Shown here in pieces: positions 14,001 through 57,278 of a stretch of 64,000 nucleotides of DNA. Location of the stretch: assembly GCA_000165345.1 (NCBI GenBank), contig CM000433.1, positions 224,001-288,000 on the forward strand. The letters run 5' to 3'. A model generated the notes under the pieces. The model was not told the DNA's origin. It was given only the letters and a program-made list of their open reading frames with translations, and ran no database searches. The position numbers were made by a program, and so were the translations under genes. Position 1 is the first letter of the stretch; each line of letters begins with the position of its first letter.

Positions 14001-16969
14001 TTGATACACATAACTATATTATAGAGTTTAAACCATATAACTATATTACAGTTTTCCCAGACATATTGTTGAAAAGAAATTGGAAAATTAATCCATTATT
14101 ATCAATAAATATAAGAAACCAGCTGGAAAAGTACGCTAGACAATTATTATTTGACAATGCAAATTCATCAAATACATTCGATGAACCAAAAGATAAAACT
14201 CATATTGTGTTATCATTAGCCTCACCAGAAATAAAAAATATTTCCAATGAGCTGGCAATAAGCCCTTTAACAACATTGAAATACTTAATACGTGTTGTTG
14301 ATTCGTTGTCATTAGAAGAATTCAATTTTTCAAATAATCCAGACTCTGCTAAAAGAATTAGTTTCCATCCAATTCGTGATCCCCGTTATCAATGCCATAT
14401 ATGCCATGCTTTATATTCAACACATCCAGCAATGATTTCTCATTATAAGACAATTCACAATATTTACTCGATTACAAACTCTTCAATGTATACTATAAAA
14501 AAAGACAGTTCATTGATTTCCAAAAATAAAAATATTAACTTTAATTCTACAATTAGAACTCAAATACTTAGTGAAAATTATATTCCAAATACACTAAAAC
14601 ATTTGTTGGAGACAAAAGAAACTGATAATACTTGCAATGAGATTGAAAGAACAGATAAGATTGAATTACTCAGAGCATTCTTGAGATTAAGTAAGGAAGA
14701 TATAATTTTGCTATACATTATACTATTTATCAATAATAAAGTAAATATGAAGAATAAAAAATTACTCTCTAACAATTACTTATTTAGAATACTTTCATTT
14801 TGCAAAGAAAAAAAAATTGAAAGTAATTTATTTAGCCTTCAGTTTTTGCGAATTAAGTCATTGATACAAAAAATAAGTGGAATATCAGGAAGCAACTCAA
14901 TTTGTATTATTGAATTTATTTTTTCTTGTTTAAAGACAATTTACCCTTTGAACTCAAAATTGCTGGAAGCAATAAAATTAAAAGAAAAACAAAGGATTTG
15001 TTGGAGTCATTTACTAGAAGTTAATTCATTTTCTAATAGGTGGAAAGTATTTACTACCAAAGAATCAAACTCATCTATAATAGCTTCGAACATCATACCT
15101 CTATTAGATTATTCAGTAAATAATGAATATTATCATAATTTCTCTGGTTCTGGTGGTAAGGATTCAAATATTTCATTTTCAAAAATAGATTATTTACTTG
15201 TTATTAATCTTATTAAATCAGAGTTGCTTACACAAAAAAAAATAATGCAAAAGCCAATTTTTAGGTTTGCTAATCATAATATATTAGCCGAAGAACAAAT
15301 TAAACACTACTTTGAGGACTCTATTAACAAAAATATTTTGAAACAGATTCATCGTAATTCAGATTTACCAAAATTTGAAGAATCCCTCCATAATTATTTA
15401 AATAGATTTGCACCAACTAGGAGAATGTTGCTAAACTGCTTTGGCAAGACAATTGTTTGGCGTGAAATTTTTAATCTTTGCTTTGCTTTCCTACAGATTA
15501 ATTATTCAAAAGGTACAAAATTTAATGTTAACGCTCAAAATACCAATGGAGCATTTGTGTTAAATCATTTAAATAACTTGATAGAGAATAATTGTACTTT
15601 AGAAATAGAATGGAACGATCACGATTTTTATGAAAAGGTATCAAATAAAAACGATGAAGAATTATTCAGATTATTAAATGAGGTGGTTGATCAACAAAAT
15701 TCATTTGAAGATTTCTCTGAGGAATTGAATCTGAATACTGAAAAGTCGATGTTAGATTCTCAATTTTTAAAAAATAAAATGAATCTGAATGTTACAAAAG
15801 AGAATGAAGCAATTTCGAACAAGACAGATAATCTCGGAAATTCAGAATATTTTGAAGATAGCAATAACAAAAACCCAACAATATCCAACATTACAGCAAT
15901 TTATTTAAATAAGCATATTAGCAACAAGTATCTCCCCAATTTCATGGAAGTAGAATACTCATTAATAAATATTCCATTTCTAGGTGCAATGGATTCTGAT
16001 CCCTTGGAATTTAGCAAATTGCCTTCTAATTTTTCAATTTCTGAGATTCTATTGAGTTTTTCTGAAACAAAACTAAAAAATTCAAGTAGAGAGACTATTG
16101 ACCCAATTTTTAAAATTATTAAAGCTGTTTCAAGATTCATAGTTGACTCCAGCTCAAATGAGCATAATCTAATAATGAAATCAATTTCAATTATTATATA
16201 TACATTGAAGAACAGTCCCTGGTTAACAATGAACGAAATTGAAGAGATATTTTTTTTAAAATTTTCTGATTTAATTTCTGAATTATTAATAATAGGATCA
16301 AAATTTATCGATTCGGGAATTCTTTTCTATGAATTTAGGTTACCTATTATTTATCATATTATTTATTTATTGGAAATACTTAGAATATGTATAAGAATAC
16401 CGACAGAAGGAAATTGGTTATTTTCATTATTTTGCTCTATAAATAATAAGTTAGTTGAATTTAACATTGATAATCTTAATAATAATAATAATGATAATAA
16501 TAAATTAACGAAAAATAATGGAAATATCTTAATACCAAATAATGTTCCAACAAGAATATGGCTACTTTGGTCGAATGAAGTCGTTTTACAATTATTTAAC
16601 GAAAAAGAGTTAAATTTGATCGTTAACAATATTAACAAATCTCTATTTGAAGTTTTTGAATTAAATTTTATTGTACCTCCAGAAATTTACTTGAATAGAC
16701 CACAAATCAATTGTTTCGTTTCTGTTGATGGACAAATAAATTTGCCAATTTGCGGATTATTGATTTATTTCATCTCTTCATTAATTCACAGATCGCCAAT
16801 ATTTAATTTGTCAGAATTCACCTCGCGTTTCTCTTTCTTTAGCTCCTGCGAGATTGAATTAATTCTGGAATCTATGTTTGCTGAGAATTGTCTTTACAAA
16901 GATAACACACAAATAATTTTTTCAAAGCCTATACAAGATATTTTTAAAGTTTATGAAGGATATCTATAA
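11018..16969 (+). CDS. GTF3C1: TFIIIC B-block-binding subunit (tau138 / TFC3 / GTF3C1-like), 1983 aa, with one C2H2 zinc finger
   Basis: A single 5.95 kb ORF. The C-terminal block 'VDGQINLPICGLLIYFISSLIHRSPIFNLSEF...CEIELILESM' parallels the GTF3C1 C-terminus ('[33 protein letters not shown]...LELLQGLESLGC'). The N-terminus resembles a TFC3-type winged helix ('LEELSFLGWSGSSIDELFIKVISRIL'). C2H2 finger 'YQCHICHALYSTHPAMISHYKTIHN'. Confidence 0.55.
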   Translation: MDVIFSRITLEELSFLGWSGSSIDELFIKVISRILNGPYRNFASLFRNPSYKGKIIEIIASHKHTFVKDKLNGIVHSFKNCTDYYSSENLLFEANDCIKNHILDLNIFSNISEVEGRLSVYMTIASKGFNGCWQYEISRLLKMDPKMVFQHLKYLYKYDNIVRFSIPMPTNHKKRLFPNEDSNSSSGGHLSAVIWLTRFFDINLIPREISQLIWYQHIQPLSTEIVRILEYKAPGKIAWEKDIRALCAGFMIVHDENSADHLICSQRTANKVFNKLRDFLLTKNVRRVFAWHPLTKSYSPCLCLKDAFPSTTIDLSSEITVKAETHVSELNITNNEDSNCQRNNPNNEDKANANSGFFHDLYQEEIQVSTGNKIFEITEAAQVLWLIRASGRVGLVSLDIVKVFGISMKRLGKLLSDLCKIKIINKIPQRYNRTFMYRYYFNNIIFSLKAVTNNKTDKFTIDLDNYDKNKVDVKSEIKNIAIMFSEAFPDKKMELSGVTEQFVKRLVLMKKWIDESKILTIPEIAKLFSEAENTQNGPDRKTIKRILSKILELDEYSKESSIIPCKNNNTLSSSGEVTIFFSLKFYSEDEARDLKATELKNKRSSTTKSAIERRKKELSQVAAIIDASNSLSPNKQKEVSVINQSNHSSNAILSQTGTKVICDDPNQANIPRLVTNKIGDATVMLNTPDFMVASLNIEINGDDNSVNDILSSKINNSDSKLHIPGIEFNKKISFDPSKRISLGFSNLSKGGIKIQSSQGKIGFLSFSQKILAHYGFVFPIMIRLKILHHHLLFLCKEGGFKCDLLSSKEILDNMTIDTFLRVIGFGHRSRFIEEYLLYGTSETFKFGQNTRIKELPSNLYETLTRNYPKKFFFGYGKKKHMKNYEKGRKAISVLYKLLFLLCKLNFINFSIDDSKEIDKSNFKISNINQMNIESVPISSPIWKLEYNLKIPILIDAEKNEIERLTEYIKHTNVSYSLKNSEQFEQFWAILNKESIDTHNYIIEFKPYNYITVFPDILLKRNWKINPLLSINIRNQLEKYARQLLFDNANSSNTFDEPKDKTHIVLSLASPEIKNISNELAISPLTTLKYLIRVVDSLSLEEFNFSNNPDSAKRISFHPIRDPRYQCHICHALYSTHPAMISHYKTIHNIYSITNSSMYTIKKDSSLISKNKNINFNSTIRTQILSENYIPNTLKHLLETKETDNTCNEIERTDKIELLRAFLRLSKEDIILLYIILFINNKVNMKNKKLLSNNYLFRILSFCKEKKIESNLFSLQFLRIKSLIQKISGISGSNSICIIEFIFSCLKTIYPLNSKLLEAIKLKEKQRICWSHLLEVNSFSNRWKVFTTKESNSSIIASNIIPLLDYSVNNEYYHNFSGSGGKDSNISFSKIDYLLVINLIKSELLTQKKIMQKPIFRFANHNILAEEQIKHYFEDSINKNILKQIHRNSDLPKFEESLHNYLNRFAPTRRMLLNCFGKTIVWREIFNLCFAFLQINYSKGTKFNVNAQNTNGAFVLNHLNNLIENNCTLEIEWNDHDFYEKVSNKNDEELFRLLNEVVDQQNSFEDFSEELNLNTEKSMLDSQFLKNKMNLNVTKENEAISNKTDNLGNSEYFEDSNNKNPTISNITAIYLNKHISNKYLPNFMEVEYSLINIPFLGAMDSDPLEFSKLPSNFSISEILLSFSETKLKNSSRETIDPIFKIIKAVSRFIVDSSSNEHNLIMKSISIIIYTLKNSPWLTMNEIEEIFFLKFSDLISELLIIGSKFIDSGILFYEFRLPIIYHIIYLLEILRICIRIPTEGNWLFSLFCSINNKLVEFNIDNLNNNNNDNNKLTKNNGNILIPNNVPTRIWLLWSNEVVLQLFNEKELNLIVNNINKSLFEVFELNFIVPPEIYLNRPQINCFVSVDGQINLPICGLLIYFISSLIHRSPIFNLSEFTSRFSFFSSCEIELILESMFAENCLYKDNTQIIFSKPIQDIFKVYEGYL

Positions 16970-37153: not shown

Positions 37154-38473
37154 TTACGAATTTTCACTTTCTGAAGACCATACTCTAATGGTGCGGTCTA
37201 ACCCAACTGTGATAATTCTTTGTCCATTTGAAGAAATATCCATACCTGTAATTTTATGTGAATTAGTATCTACACGCTTTATGCATGAATAAGTTATACG
37301 GCTAAAGTCTGAATTAAAGTCAATTGTAGACTCATTCTTAAGCTTTGAAGTCGACCAAATTTTGATGCTTTCGTCTAAAGACGCAGAGGCAATGTATCTC
37401 CCTTTTTTTGGTTCGTACTGAACTTTTGAAATCTGTTTCGAATGCCCCAAAAGGCTAGATAACAAAGGTTTGTCAAATCTTCTTAAATCCCAAATCTTAA
37501 TATAATTATCTTGAGAGGATGTAATAAATGTAGCGTCACAGTTGGGAGAAAACTGAGAGGTAATGATTTTTTTTGAGTGAGCCAGCTGGGATAATATTGA
37601 CCTTCCCGTTCGGATATCCCAAATCCTGAATGCCCCTCCAGAATCTCCACTAACAACGAGAGCTCCATCTGGATGCACATCTAACCCGAAGATTGGTCTA
37701 GAATGACCTTCCTGAACTTGAACTTGATTTAAAGTTTCAATGTCCCAGATTCTCCATGTTTCGTCACTGCTAGCAGAAAATAAATGTTTTGAAAATGGAT
37801 GTATAACGATTTTATTTACCTGATCTTCATGTCCGATGTATTTATTTTCCACTTGACTGTTATTCCATAAAAATATGTTTGCATTTAAATCGCAGGAAAA
37901 TAGTTTTGAATTTCCCTCGTCTGTAACAATCCAGTTTACATCTGTAATGCTATGCTTATGAGACTTTAGGAAAAAGTCCTGAATTAATTTTTTTGAATCC
38001 CAAACTTTTAAGTCACCACTCAAGCCATATGTGGCAATTTTGTCTTCAAGCGGAGAAATGCTGCATCCCAATATATATCTAGTATCACACATTTCACAAA
38101 TGTTTTGTCTGATATTCAGCGTGAAACGGGTCAAAAAATCATCCTTTTCTTTTGTTAAGATTTTTTCAGAAAATTCTCTAGTATATTTTAATCTGTAATA
38201 TGATTTCTTAATCGATAGTGCGAGGATTTTCTTCCTAAAAGACATCAATTCATCTGTTCCTTCTGAAAAAAATGTCTCTTTTGCCAAGGGCTTGACAGAA
38301 TCCTTAATTACTTCAGTCGAGTTTTTTTGCCTTTCAATTAAATTAGATAGCCTTTCTCTTCTTCTATACTGATCTTCTCCAAAGTAGCATATCGGTTCTC
38401 CAAGTTCGCGAAGTTGAAGTTTTACAATTTCATCATTTGTAGAAACAGCCGAGTTGATAAATATGTAATTCAT
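37154..38473 (-). CDS. PRPF4: U4/U6 snRNP protein Prp4 (WD40, with N-terminal PRP4/SFM domain), 439 aa
   Basis: 'LQLRELGEPICYFGEDQYRRRERL' is the Prp3-binding SFM motif. It is followed by seven WD repeats (WD/WR dipeptides). Confidence 0.85.
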   Translation of the reverse strand: MNYIFINSAVSTNDEIVKLQLRELGEPICYFGEDQYRRRERLSNLIERQKNSTEVIKDSVKPLAKETFFSEGTDELMSFRKKILALSIKKSYYRLKYTREFSEKILTKEKDDFLTRFTLNIRQNICEMCDTRYILGCSISPLEDKIATYGLSGDLKVWDSKKLIQDFFLKSHKHSITDVNWIVTDEGNSKLFSCDLNANIFLWNNSQVENKYIGHEDQVNKIVIHPFSKHLFSASSDETWRIWDIETLNQVQVQEGHSRPIFGLDVHPDGALVVSGDSGGAFRIWDIRTGRSILSQLAHSKKIITSQFSPNCDATFITSSQDNYIKIWDLRRFDKPLLSSLLGHSKQISKVQYEPKKGRYIASASLDESIKIWSTSKLKNESTIDFNSDFSRITYSCIKRVDTNSHKITGMDISSNGQRIITVGLDRTIRVWSSESENS

Positions 38474-40092: not shown

Positions 40093-41253
40093 CTAGAGTC
40101 CTTTGCCTTCAAGGCTAATTTTCATTGCATGCTTAGATCTGTTCCTAGTGCGACTACTTCTGTTAATGCTAATATTTCCAATCGACTTATCTGTAAATGT
40201 GCTTGCATTGTGCTCTATACTTGAGTTATCGTTTTGCGGGATTACCTTGAAGTTATAGCCAGTATTAATTGGGATTCTCGCCGTTCTGGGTTCAATATGG
40301 AATGAACTTTTTTTAGAAGTTGACTCATTATTGTTAGATTTAATTTGTGATTTCAGGCTTTCAGGTGTAATTGGAACTTTATCAATTGTTTCCAAGGATG
40401 AGGGCCTATCTTTAGAAATAAGTCTCACCCAGCGTTGTATTAGCGTTCTTATAATTTGTCTATTCTCAATGGTCTCAGCAGAATTTTTCCAAAGTTTACA
40501 CAAAGTTTTTCCTAATTCTGTAGAGGTTATATCTTCTTCTCCCAAAGGAATGTTGCTTATTAGTTTTAAAATTTTATTTCGTATTGATAGGTTTGGAAGA
40601 GTGCCGTCTTTAAAAGGCGAAAGCCATTGACTTAGAACATCGAGCACCCCCTCAGAAATAAAGTAATTCGATAGGTTATTCATCGATACTCTTTTACAAA
40701 CTTCATCAATCATTTTCAGTTTTGAAATTGCAACTTTTCCATCAGAATAAGCAATTTCATCCTTATTAGCTGCATCTTTCATTAGTTGAATAAATTCCCT
40801 AATTTCAGTACGGACTTCCGTTTCAGAAAATTTCCTTCCAAGAGAATTTTTGTGAACATTCAAACTTGTGTCTTCAATAAAGTCATTGCTAATTTTCTCG
40901 TCGCATTCATCGTCTGATGATTTAATTCCTCCCTCGACTCGAATAATATCATCCTCATCAAAATCAGAAGACCCGTCTTCAACTATAAAGTCATCAACAC
41001 GCAAATCATCGTTATTAGGAAGAACAAATTTGTTATTTTTTTCATCATTTACATGAATTTGAGTGAAATGTTTTTTAATCTTTCTTTTTTTCCTTTTAAC
41101 TTCATGTAAGTTTTTGGTTTCTTGTTCTTTTTCCGGAAAAGTGTTGGAATTAAATTGCTCTGAAGTTACTAATTCAAGATCTATAATTGATTCACCAATT
41201 CTGTTCGTTCTATTGTTAGATATTCCGGAGTCGAATTCGTTAGTTTCAACCAT
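40093..41253 (-). CDS. IWS1: transcription elongation factor IWS1 / Spn1 homolog (TFIIS-N domain), 386 aa
   Basis: 'VAISKLKMIDEVCKRV...GVLDVLSQWLSPFKDGTLPNLSIRNKILKLISNIPL...ENRQIIRTLIQRWVRLI' is colinear with the IWS1 core ('PAIKKLKML...GSLPNINIR...KLIDKWSRPIF'). Acidic N-terminal region. Confidence 0.8.
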   Translation of the reverse strand: MVETNEFDSGISNNRTNRIGESIIDLELVTSEQFNSNTFPEKEQETKNLHEVKRKKRKIKKHFTQIHVNDEKNNKFVLPNNDDLRVDDFIVEDGSSDFDEDDIIRVEGGIKSSDDECDEKISNDFIEDTSLNVHKNSLGRKFSETEVRTEIREFIQLMKDAANKDEIAYSDGKVAISKLKMIDEVCKRVSMNNLSNYFISEGVLDVLSQWLSPFKDGTLPNLSIRNKILKLISNIPLGEEDITSTELGKTLCKLWKNSAETIENRQIIRTLIQRWVRLISKDRPSSLETIDKVPITPESLKSQIKSNNNESTSKKSSFHIEPRTARIPINTGYNFKVIPQNDNSSIEHNASTFTDKSIGNISINRSSRTRNRSKHAMKISLEGKGL

Positions 41254-41538: not shown

Positions 41539-42828
41539 ATGCCTGTTATTAATTGCAGTTCAACACGTTTGAGAACTGACTTAATAGATTATATTTGGAC
41601 GATTGAAGATTTTCCTTTACTAAGAACGCTCGCAATGCAGCGTGCATTGCCTAATCACGACAGAATAATAAGTAAAAAATTTGGTGATCAGCATAATGGA
41701 ACTTGGTTTCTAACCATATTTCCTGCAGGAGTAAACTGCGATGGTGATATGCTATCAATTTATTTATTTTCATACTCTGAACAAATCAGGATTGCACAAT
41801 TTGAAATTTCTTTATTAGATGATAAGTTAAATATCATTGAGGGTACAACAGTCTCGCTTTCTCAACCTCGAATTTTCAATGTTCATGATTCAAGTTGGGG
41901 ATGGGAGGATTATATGCGAATTGATATAATCGACGATACTAGTTTAAATGACATGAGTATTAAAAATTCTCCAAGTCAAGCAATTCCCTCCCCATTTGGG
42001 AATGACCTGGGAAGAACGCTATCACCAGATGAATTAATTTATTTTTCGGATGAAGGCTTAGACACATATAGCGTTCAAAACCATTTATTAGATGGAAGCA
42101 GTGAAATAAAATCTTCTGAAGATAACATTTTGAATTGGGAGAGAACTGTACTTAAATATTTTATTTTTGGTGGTGCAATCCGTGTAAAAATAAATATCAA
42201 GTCATTTAAAGATTTTATTCATTCAGATGGGAGCGTAATGGTTCCTAATTTTTTATCAAACAGAATTGCTACTCAAGATTATTTATGGCTTGCAAACGAC
42301 ATTTCCAAACTTTCTAAAGAGTGCTCAGATAAATTATGCGAAAAAGTTACACTAAATTGCGGTACCGAGCTCTTTCATGTCCCCAAGTTTGCACTTGCTG
42401 CTAGATCGAAGTACTTCCAGAATTTTTTTTTATCAAACTTCTCAGATTCAAATGCTAAGTATTTTTCAATTCCAGTTGGCGATGCATCACCATATATTCT
42501 AAGAAATGCATTAGATTATATTTTAACTGGAGATTGCAGATTATTAAGTGATGAAAACATTAAAAACTGGAAGGAGATAATAGATTTATTCAGATTTTCA
42601 GACAAGTATGGAATTAAATCGTTGTACAATGCATGCGTGCCCGCAATTATTGCAAATATCAATTCAGAATCCGTATGGGCTACTATGATAATTGCAAAAC
42701 AATGTAATTCAGATAAAATTCTTAAATCAGTGGAACATTTTTTTAAGACAAGTGGGGATTTTTCTTTAATTGTAAATGCTCTAGTTGGCCACATATTAGA
42801 ATATAAAAACTCTATAGTTAAAGGCTAA
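41539..42828 (+). CDS. MATH-BTB protein (SPOP-like cullin-3 adaptor), 429 aa
   Basis: N-terminal MATH/TRAF-like domain ('YIWTIEDFPLL...GTWFLTIFPAG...LSIYLF'). BTB/POZ domain ('VTLNCGTELFHVPKFALAARSKYFQNFF...ILRNALDYILTG'). Confidence 0.7.
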   Translation: MPVINCSSTRLRTDLIDYIWTIEDFPLLRTLAMQRALPNHDRIISKKFGDQHNGTWFLTIFPAGVNCDGDMLSIYLFSYSEQIRIAQFEISLLDDKLNIIEGTTVSLSQPRIFNVHDSSWGWEDYMRIDIIDDTSLNDMSIKNSPSQAIPSPFGNDLGRTLSPDELIYFSDEGLDTYSVQNHLLDGSSEIKSSEDNILNWERTVLKYFIFGGAIRVKINIKSFKDFIHSDGSVMVPNFLSNRIATQDYLWLANDISKLSKECSDKLCEKVTLNCGTELFHVPKFALAARSKYFQNFFLSNFSDSNAKYFSIPVGDASPYILRNALDYILTGDCRLLSDENIKNWKEIIDLFRFSDKYGIKSLYNACVPAIIANINSESVWATMIIAKQCNSDKILKSVEHFFKTSGDFSLIVNALVGHILEYKNSIVKG

Positions 42829-42933: not shown

Positions 42934-45183
42934 CTATTTATTTTCTAAAGTGTTAACAAAATCTGTAATCTCAACGTTCTTATTATCAATAAAAGACCAA
43001 GAAATTACTATTTTATTTACAACACTTTTTTTGATGTCAATGTTGGGTTGGTCAATAATTGCATCAGAAAGGTATTTATTAATGACATCTAGCTGATAGC
43101 TCTCAGCAGTAATTTTAACAATTAAACTTTTATAAGTAATAATAGTCAAATTGTCATAAAAATATGACTTGATTAATCGATTAATTTCTTCGTTGAAGTG
43201 CGGTTTTCTTAAACTACAATTTTTTTTCCTGATGATATATTTGCGAAATACATTACTTAACAAATTTCCAATTGCAATTAATATCTTGAAAATTTCGATA
43301 TCATATATATTTGAATAAAATGTCAAATTAAATTTATTGATGTTGTGAAATGTTTGTTTAATTTGGAATCTTTTAAATTGATATATTGTGATATTCGTTT
43401 CTGAAGTATCTTTATTTTTCTTTGAATGTTTTTTCATTTTCAATAGTTTCTTTTGGAAAATCTTTGACTTTCCTCTCAAATATGTATATAATTCATTTTT
43501 TGTCAAGATAAATGAATGTTTATGATCAGTGTATTTTGAAGTAAAAATGTAAATTGGAAATAGCTTTGGTATTCCATAATATTCAATTAACAACGAACGT
43601 AAATGACAAATTGAATGGGCACTATTTTCTAATAAACCAATAGTCGGATTATTAAGCTGTCTAATCCGAAACTTTTCAATAATATTTCTTGCTTTTAATT
43701 TATTCACTAATGAATTTTGTATTGAATTTATAGCGTTTATCAATGAATACTTTATTGAAAGGTAGCAAACATATTTGCAGTTCTCTTTAGTGGGCAAAGT
43801 GGTAATTGAACCATTATGTGGGCAGAATGTAGGAATTTTAAATTCAGAATTTATGAACGATGCCAAGTTTAGCATACCATGTCTTTCTCCGTGAACGAAT
43901 GCTATAGATTGTGGCTCTGAGTGAGAAATAAGGGATTGTATTCCGATAGAATCTGCGTGTGATGAAAAGCTGAGATACTTTACATTGCACCTTACTTCAA
44001 TACATGTGGTAGGATCTTTTTGGTCGATGTAAACTCTTTTTGCACCATTAATTATCTTTGAGCCAATAGTGCCAGATACGCAAAAGCCGGGAATAATAGT
44101 AAGATTGTTGGAGTCCGGTGCCCACATTTTAAAGGCTTGAAGAGAAAGCCCAGTATGAAGCATCCCAGGTGTTGCAAAAAGTACTGCAGGGCCTGAAAGC
44201 GTCAGAATAGATTTGTCATATGGCAGTACATGCGGAAAAGTAAAAATATTATCAGCGAGCGGCGTGTTAGTCCAGTTAGTAAATAATTGGTAATATGAAT
44301 TGGCCTTTTCCGTCATTGAGCCTCCGAAAAAAATTGGGAATCTTATTTGCATTCTACGCCAGTAAATTTCCAATAGTATACATAGTTCTTGCGCTCGACC
44401 AATTGCAAATACGGGTATCAATACTTTACCACCTCTCTTTAAGCAAGAGTATACCATTTCACAAAAGGTTCTCTCAGTTGAACGCCTTGAAGGCCGAATG
44501 TATGTTGCATATGTGCTTTCTGAAATTAATAAGCTTGGTAGTAGCTTAGGTATTAATGCTGGTCCTAGATGCCTATCTCTAACCATATTGAAATCACCAG
44601 TATAAACAATTGATTCGTCACTAACCTGTACGTGAAACATCGAAGCCCCCAAAACGTGACCTGCATAATATGGAGTAATTTTTATCCCTGAAATAACTAT
44701 GGTTTGATGAAGCTGAATAGCCTTTACCTTTTCCATGCAGCTCCATACATCAGAAACAGTGAAAAAACCATATTCATTATTATAAACTGTTTCATTTGGG
44801 GGAGCCACATCAACGTTTGTTTTTTGCAATAATAATTTTTGTTCCATAATTTTGCAGCAGTCAGAAAGTAAAACAGATGAAACAGATTTTGTAGGATAAG
44901 TCATTACTATTGGGCCTTTATAACCTATTTTCTCTGTAAAAAAAGGTAGTGCACCGCAGTGATCTAAATGATAGTGAGATATTATGACCAAATCGATATA
45001 TTCATTTATAATTAAAGGGTCTAGAGTGGCACTAATTAATCTAAAATCAGGATACTTTCTTTCATCTTTAAAACCCATATGCATTCCACAATCAAACATG
45101 ACTGTTTTTGATCCAATCTTTGCTATTATACATGATCTTCCTACATCTTGACCTGCGCCTAGTGGTATAATTGAAATTGTCAT
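42934..45183 (-). CDS. INTS11: Integrator subunit 11-like metallo-beta-lactamase / beta-CASP nuclease (CPSF73 paralog), 749 aa
   Basis: 'IPLGAGQDVGRSCIIAKIGSKTVMFDCGMHMGFKDERKYPDF', 'ISHYHLDHCGALPFF' (HxHxDH) and 'YYAGHVLGASMFHVQVSDESIVYTGDFNMVRDRHLGPA' are colinear with INTS11. They are closer to INTS11 than to CPSF73, which reads 'DCGIHPG...'. Includes a ~150-aa Asn/Lys-rich C-terminal extension. Confidence 0.8.
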   Translation of the reverse strand: MTISIIPLGAGQDVGRSCIIAKIGSKTVMFDCGMHMGFKDERKYPDFRLISATLDPLIINEYIDLVIISHYHLDHCGALPFFTEKIGYKGPIVMTYPTKSVSSVLLSDCCKIMEQKLLLQKTNVDVAPPNETVYNNEYGFFTVSDVWSCMEKVKAIQLHQTIVISGIKITPYYAGHVLGASMFHVQVSDESIVYTGDFNMVRDRHLGPALIPKLLPSLLISESTYATYIRPSRRSTERTFCEMVYSCLKRGGKVLIPVFAIGRAQELCILLEIYWRRMQIRFPIFFGGSMTEKANSYYQLFTNWTNTPLADNIFTFPHVLPYDKSILTLSGPAVLFATPGMLHTGLSLQAFKMWAPDSNNLTIIPGFCVSGTIGSKIINGAKRVYIDQKDPTTCIEVRCNVKYLSFSSHADSIGIQSLISHSEPQSIAFVHGERHGMLNLASFINSEFKIPTFCPHNGSITTLPTKENCKYVCYLSIKYSLINAINSIQNSLVNKLKARNIIEKFRIRQLNNPTIGLLENSAHSICHLRSLLIEYYGIPKLFPIYIFTSKYTDHKHSFILTKNELYTYLRGKSKIFQKKLLKMKKHSKKNKDTSETNITIYQFKRFQIKQTFHNINKFNLTFYSNIYDIEIFKILIAIGNLLSNVFRKYIIRKKNCSLRKPHFNEEINRLIKSYFYDNLTIITYKSLIVKITAESYQLDVINKYLSDAIIDQPNIDIKKSVVNKIVISWSFIDNKNVEITDFVNTLENK

Positions 45184-45263
45184 AATTTTTTAATATTAGC
45201 TTTTATTCAAACAAAAAATGAGTGATCGCGGGTATAATAATTTCCAATTGAAATAAAAAATTA

Positions 45264-47752
45264 ATGCAGAAAAAGGATAATACTAATTTGTTCAGCTACA
45301 AAAAAATTAGGAGGAAGACTTTTAAAAAAGACAACAGTGGCTGTAATTACAAGCCCACAAACTTTTTACCAAATAGCTGTATTAGAGGTGATAGGAAAAC
45401 AATTCTATGCGTTGCAGAAAAAAATTCTGTTGCAAAAGAAATTGCTAATATTCTCTGCCCAGAATTTCAATCACCAAATAAATTGAAGAGCAAAAGTAAG
45501 ACAAATGTTGCGTTATACTTCCCTTATGAATTTTGTGGGGATGAGTGTAACATGATAGTTACATCAGTAAGAGGCCATTTGAAGCAACTAGGATTTGCAT
45601 CAAAATATTCAGACTGGGGTTCGGTAAACCCTGTTGTGCTGTTGGATCTATCTACGCCAGTTATTAGTTCAATTTTACCTGACTGTATGGGAATTGCAGA
45701 TAACTTAACATATTTTTCAAAAATATCATCTTATTTGATTCTATGGTTAGATTGCGATAGGGAGGGCGAGAATATTGCATTCGAAGTACTAAGTATTTGT
45801 TTAAACTCGAACAAAAACCTGATTACTTTTAGGGCTCATTTTTCAGCGATTACTAAATTTGAGATTAACAATGCAATGAAAAAACTATCATTTCCCAATC
45901 GTGCATTAAGCGATGCTGTCGAGGCTAGAAAAGAAATAGACTTAAGAGTAGGGTCTTCCTTTACGAGGTTTTTAACTCTGAGGTATAGTAGGCTATTCCC
46001 GATTCCAGAACGCACACTTAGCTATGGAACATGCCAATTCCCTACTCTTGGATTCGTTGTAAGCAGATATAAAAAGATTATTAATTTTAGAGAGGAAGAT
46101 GAGTGGACGATCACATTGGAAGTTAAGATGAAGATTTATGAAGGGAATAACAAAGAAATGTCGAACGTAATTTTTGAATGGGAAAGAGGTAAACTTTTTG
46201 ATAACTTATTTACATTTATTATATATGAAACTTGCATAGAAAATTCAAATGCAAGAATTAAAGAAATAGTTAATAACAAGATCTTGAAAAGAAAACCCTT
46301 ACCACTTAATACAGTTGAAATGACAAAAATTGCATCTGATAAGTTAAAATTTTCTCCTATTAAGTGCATTAATATTGCAGAAAATCTTTATAGAAAAGGT
46401 TACATTTCATATCCAAGAACAGAAACAAATAGTTTTTCGGACAGCATTGATATCTCAAAATATATAAAAGAGCAAGAAAAAAGTAGCATATTCGGATCAT
46501 TTGCAAACGAGTTGTTGTATTTAAACAGTTTTTCAGTACCGAGAAAAGGCTGTAAAGATGATGGTTCTCACCCGCCAATCCATCCTGTAAAATGTTTGAA
46601 TAAGGAACAAGCTTCTTCAAATGAAGAATGGTTGTTATACGAGCTTATTACACGTCACTTTTTGTCCTCATGCTCAGAAGATGCTGTAATTATGGAAACA
46701 ATCGTTAAAGTTGATATTTCAGGCGAGACTTTCAAGACTAAAGGAACCGTAAGTTAATTAATTCAATCATCACACTAATTAATTTCTATTAGGTTATAAT
46801 AGAAGAGAATTGGCTAAAGATATACTATCCATTTGAAAGAATAAAAACAAAGATATTACCAGCATTTAATCTTGGTAATTTAGCCTTTCCATACAAACTA
46901 TTCCTACGTAAAAGCAAAACAATCCCTCCGACATTACTGAGCGAGGCAGAACTAATTGATTTAATGGATAAGAACGGGATCGGGACTGATGCTACGATGC
47001 ACGAGCACATTGAGAAGATACAAGTCAGACAATATGTTAAGAAAAATTCAAAATCATTACTTTCTCCAACGGCATTAGGAGTTGCTTTATATAATGGATT
47101 TGAACTAATTTCTAGAAAAATGGAATCAAAGATAGATAAAGCTAAACTTATTGGTGAAACGAAGTCGCTTTATTTAAATAATATACCGGCTTGCAACCTA
47201 ATGCATTTTAGAATTAGACAAATAATTGAAAGAAGTATCGAGAAAATAACTTCCGGTGAATATTCTAGAAGTTATGTTGTTGAGCAGATAGCTGCGTTCA
47301 TGAAAAATATATACGAAAAAATGCTCGAATTTATTAGCTATTTGGATTCAGCACTACATGCTTATTTCCCTAAATGGGATGCAAGCATCGTGATGACTAA
47401 TGGAAAGATGGTTAAACAAAATATATCTGAATGCGGGTTTTGCGGGTCTAGCATAAATGTATACGAAGTTGAAAAGAGCTTGAATGGGCTTCCGCCTATT
47501 ACTGAAGCAGAAGGCGATACTATCATTCGCATTTCTAAAGATGCAAAATTAGCAATTTGTAAAAATCAATCGAAAATAGAGTGTAATAGGCCTTTATTTA
47601 TTCCAGATTTTAAATCAATTAATATTACAAATGAATACTGTCAATTTTGTAGATTCAAAAAGATTAAAATTGAAATACAGAACTCAAAAAAAGTTAGCTT
47701 ATGCCTATATTGCTTCAGTAATCTAGAAAAGGGCATATATGCTAAATGCTGA
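45264..47752 (+). CDS. TOP3: DNA topoisomerase III (type IA), 2 exons, ~814 aa
   Basis: Exons 45264..46748 and 46793..47752; intron 46749..46792 (GTAAGT...TATTAG, 44 nt). Toprim N-terminus 'ILCVAEKNSVAKEIANIL', 'YISYPRTETNSF', 'SHPPIHP'. Splicing joins '...FKTKGT' to 'VIIEENWLKIYYPFE...LLSEAELIDLMDKNGIGTDATMHEHI', colinear with Top3. C-terminal C4 zinc ribbons. The track splits it into 45264..46757 and 46964..47752. Confidence 0.85.
46749..46792 (+). other. spliceosomal intron of TOP3 (44 nt)
   Basis: GTAAGT donor directly after codon ACC; AG acceptor at 46791-46792. The frame is continuous into the conserved Top3 sequence. Confidence 0.8.
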
Positions 47753-51245: not shown

Positions 51246-54065
51246 TCACTCATTAGATTGAGAACTATTTTTATCATTGTTTAATGAGGGCGGTGAAGAA
51301 TAACCAAATTTGACGGAGTCGGAAGTATCTTCGTTAGGAACAAACTTAGAGAATAAAGGCGCAACTTCCGTACCATTTAAGGGGGATAAAGCGAATTTGC
51401 CTTGAGAAGTGCCATTTGTGAGTATTAAGCTTGAACTAATGTATCTTTCATTATTTAAATTTGTAGTTTGATTCATTGTGTTTGAGCTTCCAGGCGCTCT
51501 ATCAAGCTGATCGGATTTATCTTTTATATAATTAGGATTAGATTCAGTTGAATTTAATGAATTGATATTGGTTCCATTGTATTGTGATTGACTTGAGTTC
51601 GAGACATTATTTATAACGTTAGCTGGTGTAGTTGTAGTTGTAGTGTACTTTTTGAAAATGTGTTGATTTTGTAATAAGTCTGTTTGCTTTTCTGACCTTT
51701 TATCTGTTGCATTATTAGATTGATTGATTCTATTTTTTGCATCAGAGTTGTTATCGTAAGTTTTATTCGTTTCCTTAGTCGCTTCAGGAGAAGTAGTATT
51801 TAATAACTTTTTTTGGGCTGGAATAATTAAATTTGAGTCATCATTTAACTGGGTGTTAGTAGGCTGTAATCTATTATTATTTTGAGATAAAAGCATTAAA
51901 GTATTTGAAAGCGAGCTGTTAATGCTAGCTGTGGTGGCGGTTGTTGTTGTAGTGGTAGTGGTAGTAGTTGTGGTAGTAGTTGTGGTAGTAGTTGTGGTAG
52001 TAGTTGTGGTAGTGGTAGTAGTAGTAGTAGTTGTTGTTGTTGTAGACGTTGTATAATATGGCTTAAAGAATTCCTTTTTTGGTAGGAAAGAAATATTGTT
52101 TAGATCTATTTGGTTAAAAAGAGATGATTTACTAGCTTTTTGAGAACTGTTTGTATTCTCTCTGAGCCTCCTATTCACAGATGCAATTTTGCCAACATTG
52201 GAAGCGTTCAAAAATAGGTTTGCTTCAGTAGTAGTAGTGGTTGTTGTGGTAGTAGTAGTTGTGGTAGTAGTAGTTGTTGTGGTAGTAGTAGTAGTAGTAG
52301 TTGTTGTTGTTGTTGTCGTAGTTGTAGTTGTTGTGGTAGTAGTTGTTGTGGTAGTAGTAGTTGTTGTGGTAGTTGTAGTAGTTGTGGTAGTTGTAGTAGT
52401 TGTGGTAGTAGTAGTTGTTGTGTAATATGGCTTAAAGAATTCCTTTTTTGGTAGGAAAGGAATATTGTTTAGATCCATTGGATTTATAAATGTTGATTTT
52501 ACAGTTTCTTGTGGGCTATTAGGACTNNNTNNNTANNNTNNNNNTTNTNNGANGCANTAGNANNANNNNNNGATANNNNNANNNNTNNNNNNAGNATNNN
52601 CNNNNNGNNGNNNTNGNNNNNGNNNNNGTANTNNNTNGNTNNNTNNNTAGNGGTGAANNGAGNANTGGTANTNGTGGTAGTAGNTGTNNTTGNGGNACGG
52701 TTGTAGNANTTNTNGTGGTGAGNNGTNNNANNTNNANNAGTAGNNNNGGTAGTANNNNNNNTTGNANNGTNTNGNANTANTAANGTTNNGNTANNGAANT
52801 ANNANTAGNTNTNNTAGTNNTAGTAGTAGTAGTAGTTGTTGTTGTTGTTGTGGTANTAGTAGGTAGTTGNTGNNGTTGTGGNAGTAGTAGTTGTNGTGGT
52901 GGTAGNAGTTGTTGNTGTTGTGGTAGTTGTAGTAGTTGTTGTGGTAGNTGTAGTAGTTGTGGTAGTAGTTGTAGTAGTAGTTGTAGTTGTGTAATATGGC
53001 TTAAATGGGATTCAAAAATTTTTCTTTCATTTGGAAAAATGGATTGTTTAAATCTATNGGAAGAAAAAAGTTTGGTTTTGCAATTTCCTGCGATGAATTT
53101 GAATTGATTTGTGAAACTTCATTGCTTGCTGTGATACCTAAACTTGGCGAGTTCAAAGCTAGACTTTCTGCAGTGGTAGTAGTTGTGGTAGTTGTTGTTG
53201 TTGTGGTGGTAGTAGTTGTGGTAGTGGTAGTTGTTGTTGTTGTGGTAGTGGTAGTNGTNGTTGTTGTGGTAGTGGTAGTTGTAGTAGTTGTTGTTGTGGT
53301 AGTAGTAGTAGTTGTTGTNGTNGTNGTTGTTGTGGTAGTGTAGTGGNTAGTTGTTGTAGTGTGGTGGGTAGTTGTGNTGGTAGTAGTAGTTGTGGTAGTG
53401 GTAGTAGTAGTTGTGGTAGTGGTAGTAGTAGTTGTAGTTGTTGTTGTGGTGGTAGTAGTAGTAGTTGTTGTTGTTGTCGTGGTTGTGGTAGTTGTAGTTG
53501 TTGTTGTGGTGGTAGTAGTAGTTGTAGTAGTTGTAGTTGTGGTTGTGGTAGTTGTAGTTGTTGTGGTAGTTGTTGTGGTAGTTGTAGTTGTAGTTGTTGT
53601 TGTGGTTGTGGTAGTAGTAGTTGTTGTGGTTGTGGTGGTAGTTGTTGTTGTGGTAGTTGTTGTCACTGGTCTAAATGGTCTAAAGAATTGTTCTTTCATT
53701 TGGAAAAATGGATGGCTTAAATCCATTGGATTAAAGAACGACGAGGACTTCACAGTCGAATCGTTTCCCAGTAACACTTTAGAACTATCCAAATTAGTGC
53801 TATTTGTATACTCAGTAGATAAAGGCATTCCGGGCAAATCGATGCCACCTATGCCAGTTAATATACCTTCAGAAGCATTTTTACTGTTTGTTACGTAGGA
53901 TTCATCTATATTACTTGGTGTGATTTGATTACCTCCTAACTCACTATTCCATGCCTCTGATTTATTTTCAGAGTATGTGATGGTATTAACTTCACATAAA
54001 GCATACTTTGAAAATTGAAGCAGAAGAAAGAAAAATAAAGTCGAAAAAACCTGTAGAAAATTCAT
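51246..54065 (-). CDS. secreted mucin-like glycoprotein with four poly-threonine tracts separated by a repeated aromatic/basic module; spans a low-quality N-containing patch and one apparent frameshift
   Basis: Signal peptide 'MNFLQVFSTLFFFLLLQFSKYALC' (ATG 54063-54065). Modules read 'DLSHPFFQMKEQFFRPFRPV-(T)n', 'IDLNNPFFQMKEKFLNPI', 'DLNNIPFLPKKEFFKPYY-(T)n' and 'IDLNNISFLPKKEFFKPYYTTS(T)n'. Ser/Asn/Thr-rich C-terminus. The track ORFs 53001..54065 and 51246..52478 are parts of one gene. Confidence 0.6.
51932..52052 (-). repeat. poly-Thr (ACN)n coding tandem repeat, tract 4
   Basis: (GTAGTAGTTGTG)n-type trinucleotide array on the plus strand. Confidence 0.8.
52228..52424 (-). repeat. poly-Thr (ACN)n coding tandem repeat, tract 3
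   Basis: GTN triplet array about 200 bp long. Confidence 0.8.
52527..52856. other. degenerate, N-interspersed consensus inside the poly-Thr region (unresolved or collapsed repeat)
   Basis: Single bases alternate with runs of n, but the GTN periodicity is still visible ('gtggtagtagntgtnnttgngg'). Confidence 0.7.
52857..52990 (-). repeat. poly-Thr (ACN)n coding tandem repeat, tract 2 (continues into the N patch)
   Basis: GTN triplet array with scattered n. Confidence 0.7.
53170..53670 (-). repeat. poly-Thr (ACN)n coding tandem repeat, tract 1 (~165 codons)
   Basis: About 500 bp of uninterrupted GTN triplets, with a few n. Confidence 0.8.
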
Positions 54066-54258: not shown

Positions 54259-55011
54259 ATGAGGAGACTACAATCATTCAAGACACCATCAAGGTTAAAT
54301 GAAAAGTTAAAGTTCTCAAACAAGAGCAATAGCATTAACGATGCTACGATAAACAACAGCACAAAATTTGTTCCAAATATAAGTGCGTTCGATTCTAACG
54401 AAGTTTTAAATAACAGCGCTCAAACAAATGATATTTCATTAAGAAATATAAAGTTTGACGAGAAGTCTGAACTGGAAGAGGTTGAACGGACTAATAGTTT
54501 GCAAAGCTTTGATTTGCCTTCAATAAAGGCTATTAAAAGATTTGAAGCTTTAAATAAATCAGGAAAACAAATTTTAATTTACGATCAGTCCAATAATATT
54601 TCTGTTGAGCCAACAATTGACAACCGAACCGTAGGTGTCTGCAATCATATTTCTGAATCTGGGATCGAAAATGTTCACAACAAATTAGAAGGCTGGTCTG
54701 TGTTTCAATTACCCAAATATATGCCTGAAAGTAAAAAAAACTACTGCGAGATTAGCAAAAATTCTACTCCTACATTACTACACGACACTCCCTCAGGTTC
54801 TATTGGTAAGCTAATATTTAGGCAAGACGGTAATATAGATTTATATTTAAATTCAAGCAAAGACAAAGAATGTACCTCGTTCAAAATAGACTGTATATCG
54901 AAAGACAATTCAGAGCAATTTATTGCTGCATTTTCAAAAATAAATGAACTAATTAACCTCGGGAAATGTGATTCATTATTAATTGCTACCCCTAAAATAC
55001 AAAAATATTAG
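54259..55011 (+). CDS. hypothetical protein, 250 aa
   Basis: ORF with a true ATG at 54259 (MRRLQSF...). No domain recognised. Confidence 0.4.
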   Translation: MRRLQSFKTPSRLNEKLKFSNKSNSINDATINNSTKFVPNISAFDSNEVLNNSAQTNDISLRNIKFDEKSELEEVERTNSLQSFDLPSIKAIKRFEALNKSGKQILIYDQSNNISVEPTIDNRTVGVCNHISESGIENVHNKLEGWSVFQLPKYMPESKKNYCEISKNSTPTLLHDTPSGSIGKLIFRQDGNIDLYLNSSKDKECTSFKIDCISKDNSEQFIAAFSKINELINLGKCDSLLIATPKIQKY

Positions 55012-55025
55012 AGTATAGTCAGAAT

Positions 55026-57278
55026 TTAATTAATTCTAATGTTATTATCTTCGAACCATGTAATTGGGAACCACTTAGGGAATACTCGTTTATATAATGG
55101 CATTCCTACTACTTCGTTTTGCTGTATTGGTCTGCTGAATAAGCATTTCATATATCCATGCATGCCCAAAGGTTCTCTTATTATTCCTCTGATGCCGCTC
55201 CTAGTTCTCAATCCAACAGATTTGAACCACTTGACGTCTTCAGGATTGTTAAACATATTTCTTACAACAGCTTTCGATTTTCTTACTTTAAATAGGTTGC
55301 CAACTAGCACTATTCTTTTAACAATAACACGATATGGGTCTGCATCAAGGATGTCACCCCATGCGAGAGGCCAATCATTTAATGTAAAATTTCCAGGCTT
55401 GAAGTTTTTATAAGTAATTTTATTTTGAGAATTAGAGTTTATATCACGAAGTGAAAAAAGTAAAATAGGGCATGGGGGAAAAACGATTGTGCTGTAGCAT
55501 GAAATAATGTAATAATCTCCATGTAACAAGACTTTGCATTGCTTCAGTATCTGAGTCCTTTCTATTTTAGTCGCAGATGAAATACGAGGACAATTACTTA
55601 CTATGGGACATATGTAAAATCTCCTAAACCCTGCTTGTAAAACCAATGGTGTTTTATTCTTGATTAAATCATTATTCTCAGCTGTCCTTTTTATCCTAAA
55701 ATTCATAACCCCAACTTTTCTTTCAAAAGGTAAAATAGATGATAAAATTATTATTCGATTTGAAACATTCTTATCTTTTAATGCTCTTTGTGCTTCCGAA
55801 GATACAGGGGATAATTTAATCTCGCAATATTTACCTTTAAAATTTTCTTGGTTGCAATTATCAACATAGATTTTTCTGGAGATTTCTCCTGTCTTTTTAA
55901 ATGATTCGATTTCAAATATTTTGGAATATTCACTGGGAAGATTTTCAAACGGATCCCAGTTGGAAGTTCTCAGAGATTCTAATCCTCGATATTTTTTAAA
56001 ACGAGTACGGCAAATAGTTTCTATTTCAACTCTCTTTTCATCAGAAGAAATCTCATGCTCATCTTCAGATTCATCAGTCAGAATTTCGTGCATACTGTCA
56101 ATTTCTGATTCTAAATCTAAATTGTCTTCATAGTGTTCAATACCATTAGCAGATAAATTATTAGGAGTATCAATGTGCATAGACTCAGCATATTTACAGA
56201 AGTCTTCATGTGAGCTATCATCAAGAGAAATGGAATTTTCCATTCCAATGGTCCCAACAAGTTCTTTATTTAAAATTTCATTGTTTTTTAAGCCACTAGG
56301 AATAAATTTATTATGGCTGGAAGGAGGAGTAGAAGATTTATGTAGAGGATCATCTATGGGACGAATTTCGTCAATAACGAAATCGCCAATATTAGTTATA
56401 TGGACAGGAAAGTTCATGGATAATCCTACTCCACGTACAAAACCTCTAATGACGAGTTGACATTTTTCTTCATTAGAATAATTATTTACTACAATGCTAG
56501 ATGATTCCGAAAGCATGTAGCCTCTTCCTTCTCTTAAGCATATTTTTGAATAGCCCATATTAGGAATTGAAGATAACAAGTTTCGAATATCATTTTCTTT
56601 CTGTAGAGAGAAAAATTTCATATTCTTCTCAAATTCCATTTCGAATGATTTCTTAAATACTTTTTCGCAATCCAAAATCTTATTGCCGAAATTATGACTC
56701 TCATTATGGAAAAAAAGCCCTATGGTATCGGTTTGGCCTTGAAGTTTTATAGATTTTAGTAATTTATATCCAATTTCATCGAATGCTTGGAATTCATCGT
56801 TAAACCCAAATAAGGCCATGACAAAATCCGAGCATTTGATTAAGTCTAACGTATCAAAAATTTTGTTATATTCTGCAATACAAATAGATAGTTTATGCTT
56901 GCCTATGTTAAATGTGAATACACTATTTGAGTTATTTTGAAAATGAATCTCAGATTCAGAGTTTCCAGGATAATGAAGATAAATATAATTGGATAATACT
57001 TTGACAACTGAAATAGGATCGCAATAAGAGTTAAATGGAATAATTGTGCACAGTATTGGAGTTCCTAACTGACACGCCTTTTCTTCTTTCCTTAAGTTAT
57101 TAGAAATGATTTTATTTTTTCTGAGTTGATTTTTTTGATTTTCTCTATTTTTCCCAGAAAGTGGCTTTAAAAAACTTTCATTACACTTTCTAAGTCTTTG
57201 ACTTGATTTCTTGCGTATGGACGATCTACCTTTGAAAGGTTTGTTGGACTGTTTTAATATCGGTTTATGACGATGCAT
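55026..57278 (-). CDS. TSR1: ribosome biogenesis protein TSR1 (Bms1/Tsr1 family), 750 aa
   Basis: C-terminal 'VIVKRIVLVGNLFKVRKSKAVVRNMFNNPEDVKWFKSVGLRTRSGIRGIIREPLGMHGYMKCLFSRPIQQNEVVGMPLYKRVFPKW' is colinear with the Tsr1 C-domain. Basic N-terminus. Confidence 0.8.
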   Translation of the reverse strand: MHRHKPILKQSNKPFKGRSSIRKKSSQRLRKCNESFLKPLSGKNRENQKNQLRKNKIISNNLRKEEKACQLGTPILCTIIPFNSYCDPISVVKVLSNYIYLHYPGNSESEIHFQNNSNSVFTFNIGKHKLSICIAEYNKIFDTLDLIKCSDFVMALFGFNDEFQAFDEIGYKLLKSIKLQGQTDTIGLFFHNESHNFGNKILDCEKVFKKSFEMEFEKNMKFFSLQKENDIRNLLSSIPNMGYSKICLREGRGYMLSESSSIVVNNYSNEEKCQLVIRGFVRGVGLSMNFPVHITNIGDFVIDEIRPIDDPLHKSSTPPSSHNKFIPSGLKNNEILNKELVGTIGMENSISLDDSSHEDFCKYAESMHIDTPNNLSANGIEHYEDNLDLESEIDSMHEILTDESEDEHEISSDEKRVEIETICRTRFKKYRGLESLRTSNWDPFENLPSEYSKIFEIESFKKTGEISRKIYVDNCNQENFKGKYCEIKLSPVSSEAQRALKDKNVSNRIIILSSILPFERKVGVMNFRIKRTAENNDLIKNKTPLVLQAGFRRFYICPIVSNCPRISSATKIERTQILKQCKVLLHGDYYIISCYSTIVFPPCPILLFSLRDINSNSQNKITYKNFKPGNFTLNDWPLAWGDILDADPYRVIVKRIVLVGNLFKVRKSKAVVRNMFNNPEDVKWFKSVGLRTRSGIRGIIREPLGMHGYMKCLFSRPIQQNEVVGMPLYKRVFPKWFPITWFEDNNIRIN

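Follow-up and report, generated by a model that had tools for sequence, protein, structure and literature searches.

A predicted INTS11 ortholog with a divergent C-terminal region in Cryptosporidium parvum

INTS11 is the zinc-dependent endoribonuclease of the Integrator cleavage module. In the human protein, the nuclease (residues 1-449) is followed by CTD1 (450-502) and CTD2 (503-600) (PMC7980224). Binding of INTS9 needs CTD2 and recruitment of INTS4 needs CTD1, whose beta-strands take part with INTS9 in a composite barrel and license the binding of INTS4 (PMC7980224). The substitution E203Q in human INTS11 inactivates Integrator (PMC7980224). A predicted ortholog is encoded on a 64-kb stretch of C. 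parvum DNA (GenBank assembly GCA_000165345.1, contig CM000433.1, positions 224,001 to 288,000), referred to here as the window. The gene lies at 42934..45183 on the minus strand, next to a topoisomerase gene, TOP3, and its product is compared below with INTS11, CPSF73 and their relatives in Apicomplexa.

The CPSF3 protein of C. hominis (PDB 6Q55) is a validated target of benzoxaborole drugs (PMC13492363, PMC7733022). It shares its superfamily, fold and zinc-site chemistry with the window protein, and both are predicted endonucleases acting on nascent RNA polymerase II (Pol II) transcripts. The two differ in orthogroup and in genomic location. Pfam searches of 20 further open reading frames (ORFs) find no second beta-CASP gene in the window, and CPSF3 is encoded elsewhere in the genome. 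Outside animals, CPSF73-II/DSP of Arabidopsis is an INTS11-type enzyme that was long labelled 'CPSF73' and has partners of divergent architecture, an analogy that is taken from the literature only. CPSF73-II/DSP is the plant Integrator-like machinery for small nuclear RNA (snRNA) 3' ends (Liu et al. 2016, cited in PMC8938319).

Assignment of the nuclease to INTS11

The window protein is more similar to INTS11 than to CPSF73 in score and in identity. When it is searched against the PDB with phmmer, fly INTS11 scores 520 bits and human INTS11 504 bits (over residues 3-468), followed by human CPSF73 (308 bits), yeast Ysh1 (261 bits) and C. hominis CPSF3 (245 bits). The scores for CPSF100 and INTS9 are 105 and 55 bits. 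The reverse search, with a human CPSF73 sequence whose identity to 6v4x_H is 100%, gives 486 bits for C. hominis CPSF3 and 360 bits for INTS11. The window protein is therefore not the best reciprocal match of CPSF73/Ysh1, and 6Q55 fills the CPSF73 role in the genus. Over 434-437 trimmed columns (about 435 for the catalytic domain), identity is 53-57% to INTS11 of human (Q5TA45, PDB 7CUN/7BFP), Drosophila (7SN8) and a fungus, and 34-39% to CPSF73/Ysh1. Among the best 120 matches from 5.8 billion proteins, every named match from outside Cryptosporidium is INTS11, and the rest are unnamed proteins with the same domains.

In the neighbour-joining bootstrap trees, CPSF73 and Ysh1 are separated from all other sequences with 100% support. 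The Cryptosporidium proteins and that of Cardiosporidium group together at 98%. When Plasmodium sequences are added, the whole apicomplexan clade has 96% bootstrap support and Cardiosporidium and Plasmodium form a group at 100%. The apicomplexan clade is sister to the remaining INTS11 sequences. These trees were built without 6Q55 and without any Cryptosporidium INTS9 or CPSF100 sequence. A preliminary description of this DNA had proposed a phylogeny as the check on its reading that the gene is INTS11-type and not CPSF73, and the window protein falls beside INTS11 and not in the CPSF73 clade. With more than 500 bits against 308, the difference in identity and the position outside CPSF73+Ysh1, that reading is supported. 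The same description had proposed a nuclease distinct from the CPSF3 drug target and coexisting with it. This also agrees with the sequence comparisons, as the window protein is not the sole CPSF73-like gene in the genus and is only distantly similar to 6Q55.

Trees and reciprocal scores, taken together, point to INTS11, and the gene probably is the C. parvum ortholog of this endoribonuclease. The reciprocal score pattern indicates that the CPSF73/INTS11 duplication predates the apicomplexans and that one of each paralog has been retained in Cryptosporidium. Judged from the sequences, the INTS11 gene is vertically inherited across Apicomplexa (Cryptosporidium, Cardiosporidium and Plasmodium).

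The gene is a single exon of 749 codons plus a stop codon. The ORF (42934-45183, minus strand) is uninterrupted, has no intron and carries both peptides, FDCGMHMGFKDERKYPDF and GYKGPIVMTYPT, that had been quoted for it in the preliminary description. The product of 749 amino acids (aa) agrees residue for residue with several database entries of C. parvum, among them QOY41552.1, that bear the names 'CPSF metallobeta-lactamase', 'Cleavage and polyadenylation specificity factor' or 'Metallo-beta-lactamase with Zn-dependent metallo-hydrolase RNA specificity domain'. The name 'Integrator complex subunit 11' is already attached to one C. hominis entry in the same 90% cluster and to the C. felis ortholog. 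Orthologs are present in at least 10 Cryptosporidium species, with 51-93% conservation across the genus.

Pfam domains of the protein are Lactamase_B/Lactamase_B_6, Beta-Casp and RMMBL. Together they define a catalytic MBL/beta-CASP/RMMBL domain of aa 1-468 (43780..45183, minus strand), which aligns with fly and human INTS11 over aa 3-468. The N-terminal start position is the same as in the animal proteins, residue 3 aligning with residue 4 of both fly and human INTS11. The catalytic set comprises D31, H70-x-H72-x-D74-H75, H176, D197, E222, H409 and H431. All seven motifs are thus intact, namely MBL motifs 1-4 (D, HxHxDH, H, D) and, for beta-CASP, motifs A-C (E, H, H). E222 aligns with the catalytic E203 of human INTS11, and conservation of motifs A-C, for which a check had been suggested, extends to all three residues (E222, H409, H431). 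The catalytic residues are invariant or near-invariant in at least 10 Cryptosporidium species, in Cardiosporidium and in animal and fungal INTS11. The gene is real, intact and, by its residues, catalytically competent-looking. It is an ordinary ortholog of a well-known enzyme, uncharacterised but already annotated.

The Plasmodium proteins, found by profile search, are named 'cleavage and polyadenylation specificity factor, putative' (for example the P. falciparum PFAG_00497 homolog, 1018 aa) and belong to the same apicomplexan INTS11 clade. The P. falciparum homolog scores 445 bits to INTS11 and 286 bits to CPSF73 in the PDB. Unlike the Cryptosporidium protein, the Plasmodium homologs are 897-1072 aa long with large insertions, and their non-catalytic regions are not detected by a profile of the Cryptosporidium C-terminal region. 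Since the Plasmodium proteins are INTS11-type by score and group with Cardiosporidium and Cryptosporidium, the CPSF label on these INTS11-type proteins appears to be a phylum-wide misnomer. This amounts to a correction of labels: under the name 'CPSF', both the reference gene of C. parvum and the related Plasmodium genes are INTS11 orthologs. As a consequence, apicomplexans are predicted to carry two distinct endonucleases of nascent RNA. The existence of a paralog with the same metal site is relevant to the interpretation of CPSF3-directed benzoxaboroles. The assignment also bears on how snRNA 3' ends are formed and how transcription is terminated in an extremely compact genome.

The INTS11-like gene model of Cardiosporidium cionae contains an insertion of approximately 110 aa, Pro/Ser-rich and of low complexity, inside the MBL domain. 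The same model has no C-terminal domain, which may reflect a faulty gene model or a true loss.

The C-terminal region and its interpretation

Relative to INTS11, the catalytic part of the window protein carries approximately 19 inserted aa (~118-137) following KIMEQK and lacks 5 aa following WTN. The nuclease part ends near aa 468 and is followed by 281 further residues, giving a protein 149 aa longer than human INTS11 (749 versus 600 aa). As in human and Drosophila INTS11, a non-catalytic region follows the nuclease, and a small alpha/beta domain is predicted at its end. Unlike in those proteins, CTD1/CTD2 cannot be recognised by sequence in the C-terminal 280 aa, where PF21386 has no match. 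Isoleucine (15-17%), lysine (12.8%) and asparagine (10%) make up more of the C-terminal part than of the ORFs in the window (9.4%, 8.4% and 8.4%). No low-complexity Asn/Lys tract is found in the C-terminal part, where the longest run is KKNK.

Two parts can be distinguished. The middle region, aa 469-607 (43363..43779, minus strand), is approximately 140 aa long, occupies the position of human CTD1 (53 aa) and contains the basic patch KKLLKMKKHSKKNK. It does not align to metazoan or fungal INTS11 and is conserved within the genus only. The AlphaFold monomer model has a predicted local distance difference test score (pLDDT) below 50 for aa 459-619, which covers the whole middle region. The second part, aa 608-749 (42937..43362, minus strand), is modelled as a confident alpha/beta domain (pLDDT 83, predicted template modelling score 0.77) with the order b-a-a-b-b-b-a-b-a. 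Its genus-invariant residues are Y, S, W-S, I-D, I, F and E. Conservation within the C-terminal region is highest over the last ~25 residues, and ISWSFIDNK..EI..F is colinear with VSWxxQDE..L..F of metazoans. Residues 608-749 are a candidate equivalent of the INTS11/CPSF73 CTD2 dimerisation domain.

The protein had been described as carrying an Asn/Lys-rich extension of ~150 aa that is absent from metazoan INTS11. The additional length stands, at 149 aa. The composition does not, as the enrichment in lysine and asparagine is mild and forms no tract. Nor is the extension a terminal appendage, because the extreme C-terminus is the best-conserved part and is colinear with the end of metazoan INTS11. 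The extra length reflects expansion and divergence of the whole post-catalytic region and is not a tail appended to a normal INTS11. The 'extension' is better described as a diverged, expanded C-terminal region that holds a folded, genus-conserved domain.

A function in snRNA or other 3'-end processing may be inferred from orthology, the source being INTS11 in animals and its plant counterpart CPSF73-II/DSP. The window protein would cleave nascent Pol II transcripts that are not polyadenylated through CPSF. Its chief targets would be snRNA 3' ends, probably together with promoter-proximal or unwanted transcripts, and cleavage would then trigger transcription termination. The C-terminal region would be the site of partner binding, and the partner would be a pseudo-nuclease like INTS9 or else a substitute specific to the lineage. 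The sequence of this region has diverged past recognition, yet a folded alpha/beta domain is predicted at its end.

Several points weigh against the INTS11 reading. The trees hold two CPSF73-clade sequences and no outgroup, and their rooting relies on the midpoint and on score asymmetry. Literature searches covering Cryptosporidium, Apicomplexa, alveolates and Plasmodium found no paper on Integrator or INTS11; Stevens et al. 2018 (PMC6117058) included INTS11 among their queries against other apicomplexans and reported CPSF73 alone. At E<=10, PF21386 (IntS11_C) has no match in the C-terminal regions of 12 Cryptosporidium proteins, whereas a mollusc INTS11 matches it at 1e-29. The only Pfam matches of the C-terminal regions at E<=10 are noise (Cry1Ac_D5, Fe_hyd_SSU). 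Comparison with 100 metazoan and fungal C-terminal domains by hhalign gives nothing in global mode and a local motif of 14 columns in local mode (pairwise E 0.0056, probability 6.5%). Foldseek with the confident model of aa 608-749 does not recover INTS11 or CPSF73 C-terminal domains.

The 14-column match is too weak for a claim of homology to INTS11 C-terminal domains. In a Foldseek search with a noisier model (aa 459-749), INTS11 chains took ranks 1, 3 and 34, all with E >=0.12. These hits are not significant, were not reproduced with the cleaner model of aa 608-749 and are not used.

The mismatch between a catalytic domain of strong conservation and a C-terminus specific to the lineage is notable, as known INTS11 function depends on a C-terminal region that binds INTS9 and INTS4. 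Three other explanations of the gene were considered. The enzyme could be an INTS11-derived nuclease that works outside canonical Integrator, with a lineage-specific partner, as a homodimer or alone. It would then act on its own in termination or processing, in a genome that leaves only tens of bases between neighbouring transcripts. This explanation draws on the absence of the IntS11_C match and on the profile of aa 459-749, which finds relatives in Cryptosporidium only among 1.84 billion representatives. The region at the CTD1 position is approximately 90 aa longer than its human counterpart and is not confidently folded. In human INTS11, CTD2 is required to bind INTS9 and CTD1 to recruit INTS4 (PMC7980224). 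The Cardiosporidium model stops approximately 40 aa past the catalytic domain, and the Plasmodium homologs (897-1072 aa) have different and much longer non-catalytic regions. However, the terminal ISWSxxD..E..F is colinear with the metazoan motif. The C-terminal domains of beta-CASP pairs are also known to evolve fast, so sequence divergence alone is no proof of partner loss. A nuclease outside canonical Integrator is considered unlikely.

Current C. parvum and Plasmodium product names, and the MBL/beta-CASP/RMMBL architecture that is shared with CPSF73, would fit a second CPSF73-like subunit of the mRNA cleavage and polyadenylation or histone pre-mRNA machinery. This is very improbable. INTS11 is nearer by about 200 bits and ~15-20 identity points, and the genus has a bona fide CPSF3 that is the benzoxaborole target (6Q55; PMC7733022, PMC13492363). 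As product names, the CPSF terms are generic labels given by homology, and INTS11 is in use among other annotators. An inactive pseudo-nuclease of the INTS9 or CPSF100 type, or a decaying gene, is suggested by the divergent C-terminus alone and is hardly tenable. The zinc-ligand and beta-CASP residues are invariant in at least 10 Cryptosporidium species and in Cardiosporidium, which effectively refutes it; the similarity to INTS9 and CPSF100 is low (55 and 105 bits), and the ORF is intact and 51-93% conserved in the genus. An INTS11 ortholog with a diverged C-terminal region is thus preferred over these three.

A more far-reaching proposal is that apicomplexan INTS11 has kept its catalytic domain highly conserved and exchanged the INTS9/INTS4-binding C-terminus for lineage-specific modules, which in Cryptosporidium would be the genus-restricted alpha/beta domain. 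The result would be a minimal, non-canonical Integrator-like termination nuclease. This proposal is speculative and quite doubtful. If true, non-canonical INTS11 could be a main determinant of Pol II stop sites in a genome with 3-100-bp spacers and polycistronic read-through. Because its di-zinc site is the same as that of CPSF3, INTS11 could then also be a secondary target of anti-cryptosporidial benzoxaboroles. The contrast between a catalytic domain that is more than 50% identical to animal INTS11 and an unrecognisable C-terminus offers a handle on the question of an INTS9/INTS4 module in these parasites.

The intergenic region shared with TOP3-alpha

The nuclease gene and TOP3 are arranged head-to-head. 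Their start codons had been placed about 80 bp apart, and the distance is exactly 80 bp (45184..45263), with the TOP3 ATG at 45264 on the plus strand. No alternative downstream ATG is present before the TOP3 Toprim domain. Both start codons are well supported, given the INTS11 N-terminal alignment on one side and the lack of another ATG before Toprim on the other.

Synteny of the TOP3/INTS11 pair and the genes around it extends to C. meleagridis, C. ubiquitum, C. canis, C. bovis and C. andersoni. As far as C. andersoni, the order of genes remains RRM protein, TOP3, INTS11-like, BTB, Med26-like and epimerase, and the divergent pairing with TOP3-alpha is fixed in Cryptosporidium. The equivalent gap is 78 bp in C. 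meleagridis, 75 bp in C. ubiquitum, 87 bp in C. canis, 77 bp in C. bovis and 204 bp in C. andersoni.

The preliminary description had called this an unusually compact bidirectional promoter. The window contains 11 divergent ATG-ATG gaps, of 80, 100, 188, 193, 204, 232, 244, 285, 389, 529 and 1238 bp. The gap in question is the shortest of them, with one of 100 bp in second place. Bidirectional promoters are usual in this genome. A majority of regulatory peaks in C. parvum chromatin accessibility (ATAC-seq) data are reported to be bidirectional promoters, and E2F motifs predominate (bioRxiv 10.1101/2025.01.17.633476; PMC12246861). Tandem and tail-to-tail gaps in the window go down to 3-40 bp, the tail-to-tail gaps being as short as 3-14 bp. 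The claim of unusual compactness is therefore not upheld. The 80-bp spacing is compact only with respect to eukaryotes in general and is no outlier within Cryptosporidium. Apart from the C-terminal region, the locus is ordinary, with a gene that is already annotated and a head-to-head layout that is normal for Cryptosporidium.

An E2F-like GC core, TACCCGC on the minus strand (GCGGGTA on the plus strand), lies at 45228..45234, at a distance of 45 bp from the ATG of INTS11 and 30 bp from that of TOP3. It is the sole GC-rich element of the 80 bp and occurs once in the 64-kb window, where 0.82 occurrences are expected by chance. GCGGGTA is one mismatch away from the published C. parvum E2F consensus, [A/T][C/G]GCGC[G/C][A/T] (PMC12246861). 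C. meleagridis, C. ubiquitum and C. canis have the heptamer in their intergenic region too, and C. bovis and C. andersoni have TACCGC variants. The 80 bp are probably a typical Cryptosporidium bidirectional promoter with a putative E2F-like site as its driver. The shared region does not imply that the nuclease and the topoisomerase are functionally linked. The TACCCGC/GCGGGTA core at this intergenic region is common to four intestinal Cryptosporidium species.

TOP3 consists of two exons on the plus strand. Exon 1 (45264..46748, 495 codons) encodes Toprim and the first part of Topoisom_bac (Pfam), and exon 2 (46793..47752, 319 codons plus stop) encodes the end of the topoisomerase domain and Cys-rich, zinc-finger-like C-terminal motifs. 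They are separated by an intron of 44 nt (46749..46792, GTAAGT...TATTAG) with the GTAAGT donor at 46749, and the frame is restored across it. The spliced protein has 814 aa and a continuous topoisomerase domain; NCBI models in other species have 808-848 aa. It scores 422 bits to human TOP3-alpha (4cgy_A) versus 330 bits to TOP3-beta. With Toprim and Topoisom_bac both present, the gene is assigned to the TOP3-alpha type. The two ORFs are not separate genes and do not reflect a frameshift, as the canonical intron joins them in frame. The intron was not mentioned in the preliminary description. When ORFs are called naively, and also in the gene calls made for Logan contigs, TOP3 falls into two ORFs, of 497 and 262 aa.

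Other features of the window

The window has a GC content of approximately 30%, tightly packed genes and almost no introns. An Rfam scan of the window finds no snRNA or other RNA genes. On the other side of the nuclease gene, a BTB gene at 41539-42828 on the plus strand (with MATH in some orthologs) converges on it. The stop codons of the two genes are 105 bp apart, and the arrangement is syntenic in all species examined.

Convergent stop codons only 3-14 bp apart are found at 62482/62486, 34249/34264, 37139/37154 and 55011/55026. At such distances, 3' untranslated regions and poly(A) sites must overlap the neighbouring gene, which bears on termination.

Genes for RNA metabolism and transcription are abundant in the window. 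They encode a PRP1/Prp6-like splicing factor (1419-4190, minus strand), a TFIIIC B-block subunit (11018-16969, plus), a PRP4 WD40 protein (37154-38473, minus), a Med26/IWS1-type TFIIS-N protein (40093-41253, minus), a weak RPC4-like ORF (54259-55011, plus) and Tsr1 (55026-57278, minus). This richness implies no functional link to the nuclease.

The ORFs at 51246-52478 and 53001-54065, both on the minus strand, have no Pfam match. Long (GTN)n tracts on the plus strand correspond to (NAC)n in the coding sense, and the predicted products are poly-Thr-rich. Their sequences look like mucin-type Thr-rich glycoprotein genes. The repeats at 51943-53663 form (GTN)n tracts with periods of 3, 12, 18, 24 and 60. 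The GC skew of +0.64 and AT skew of -0.31 at 52-54 kb are due to these (GTN)n tracts.

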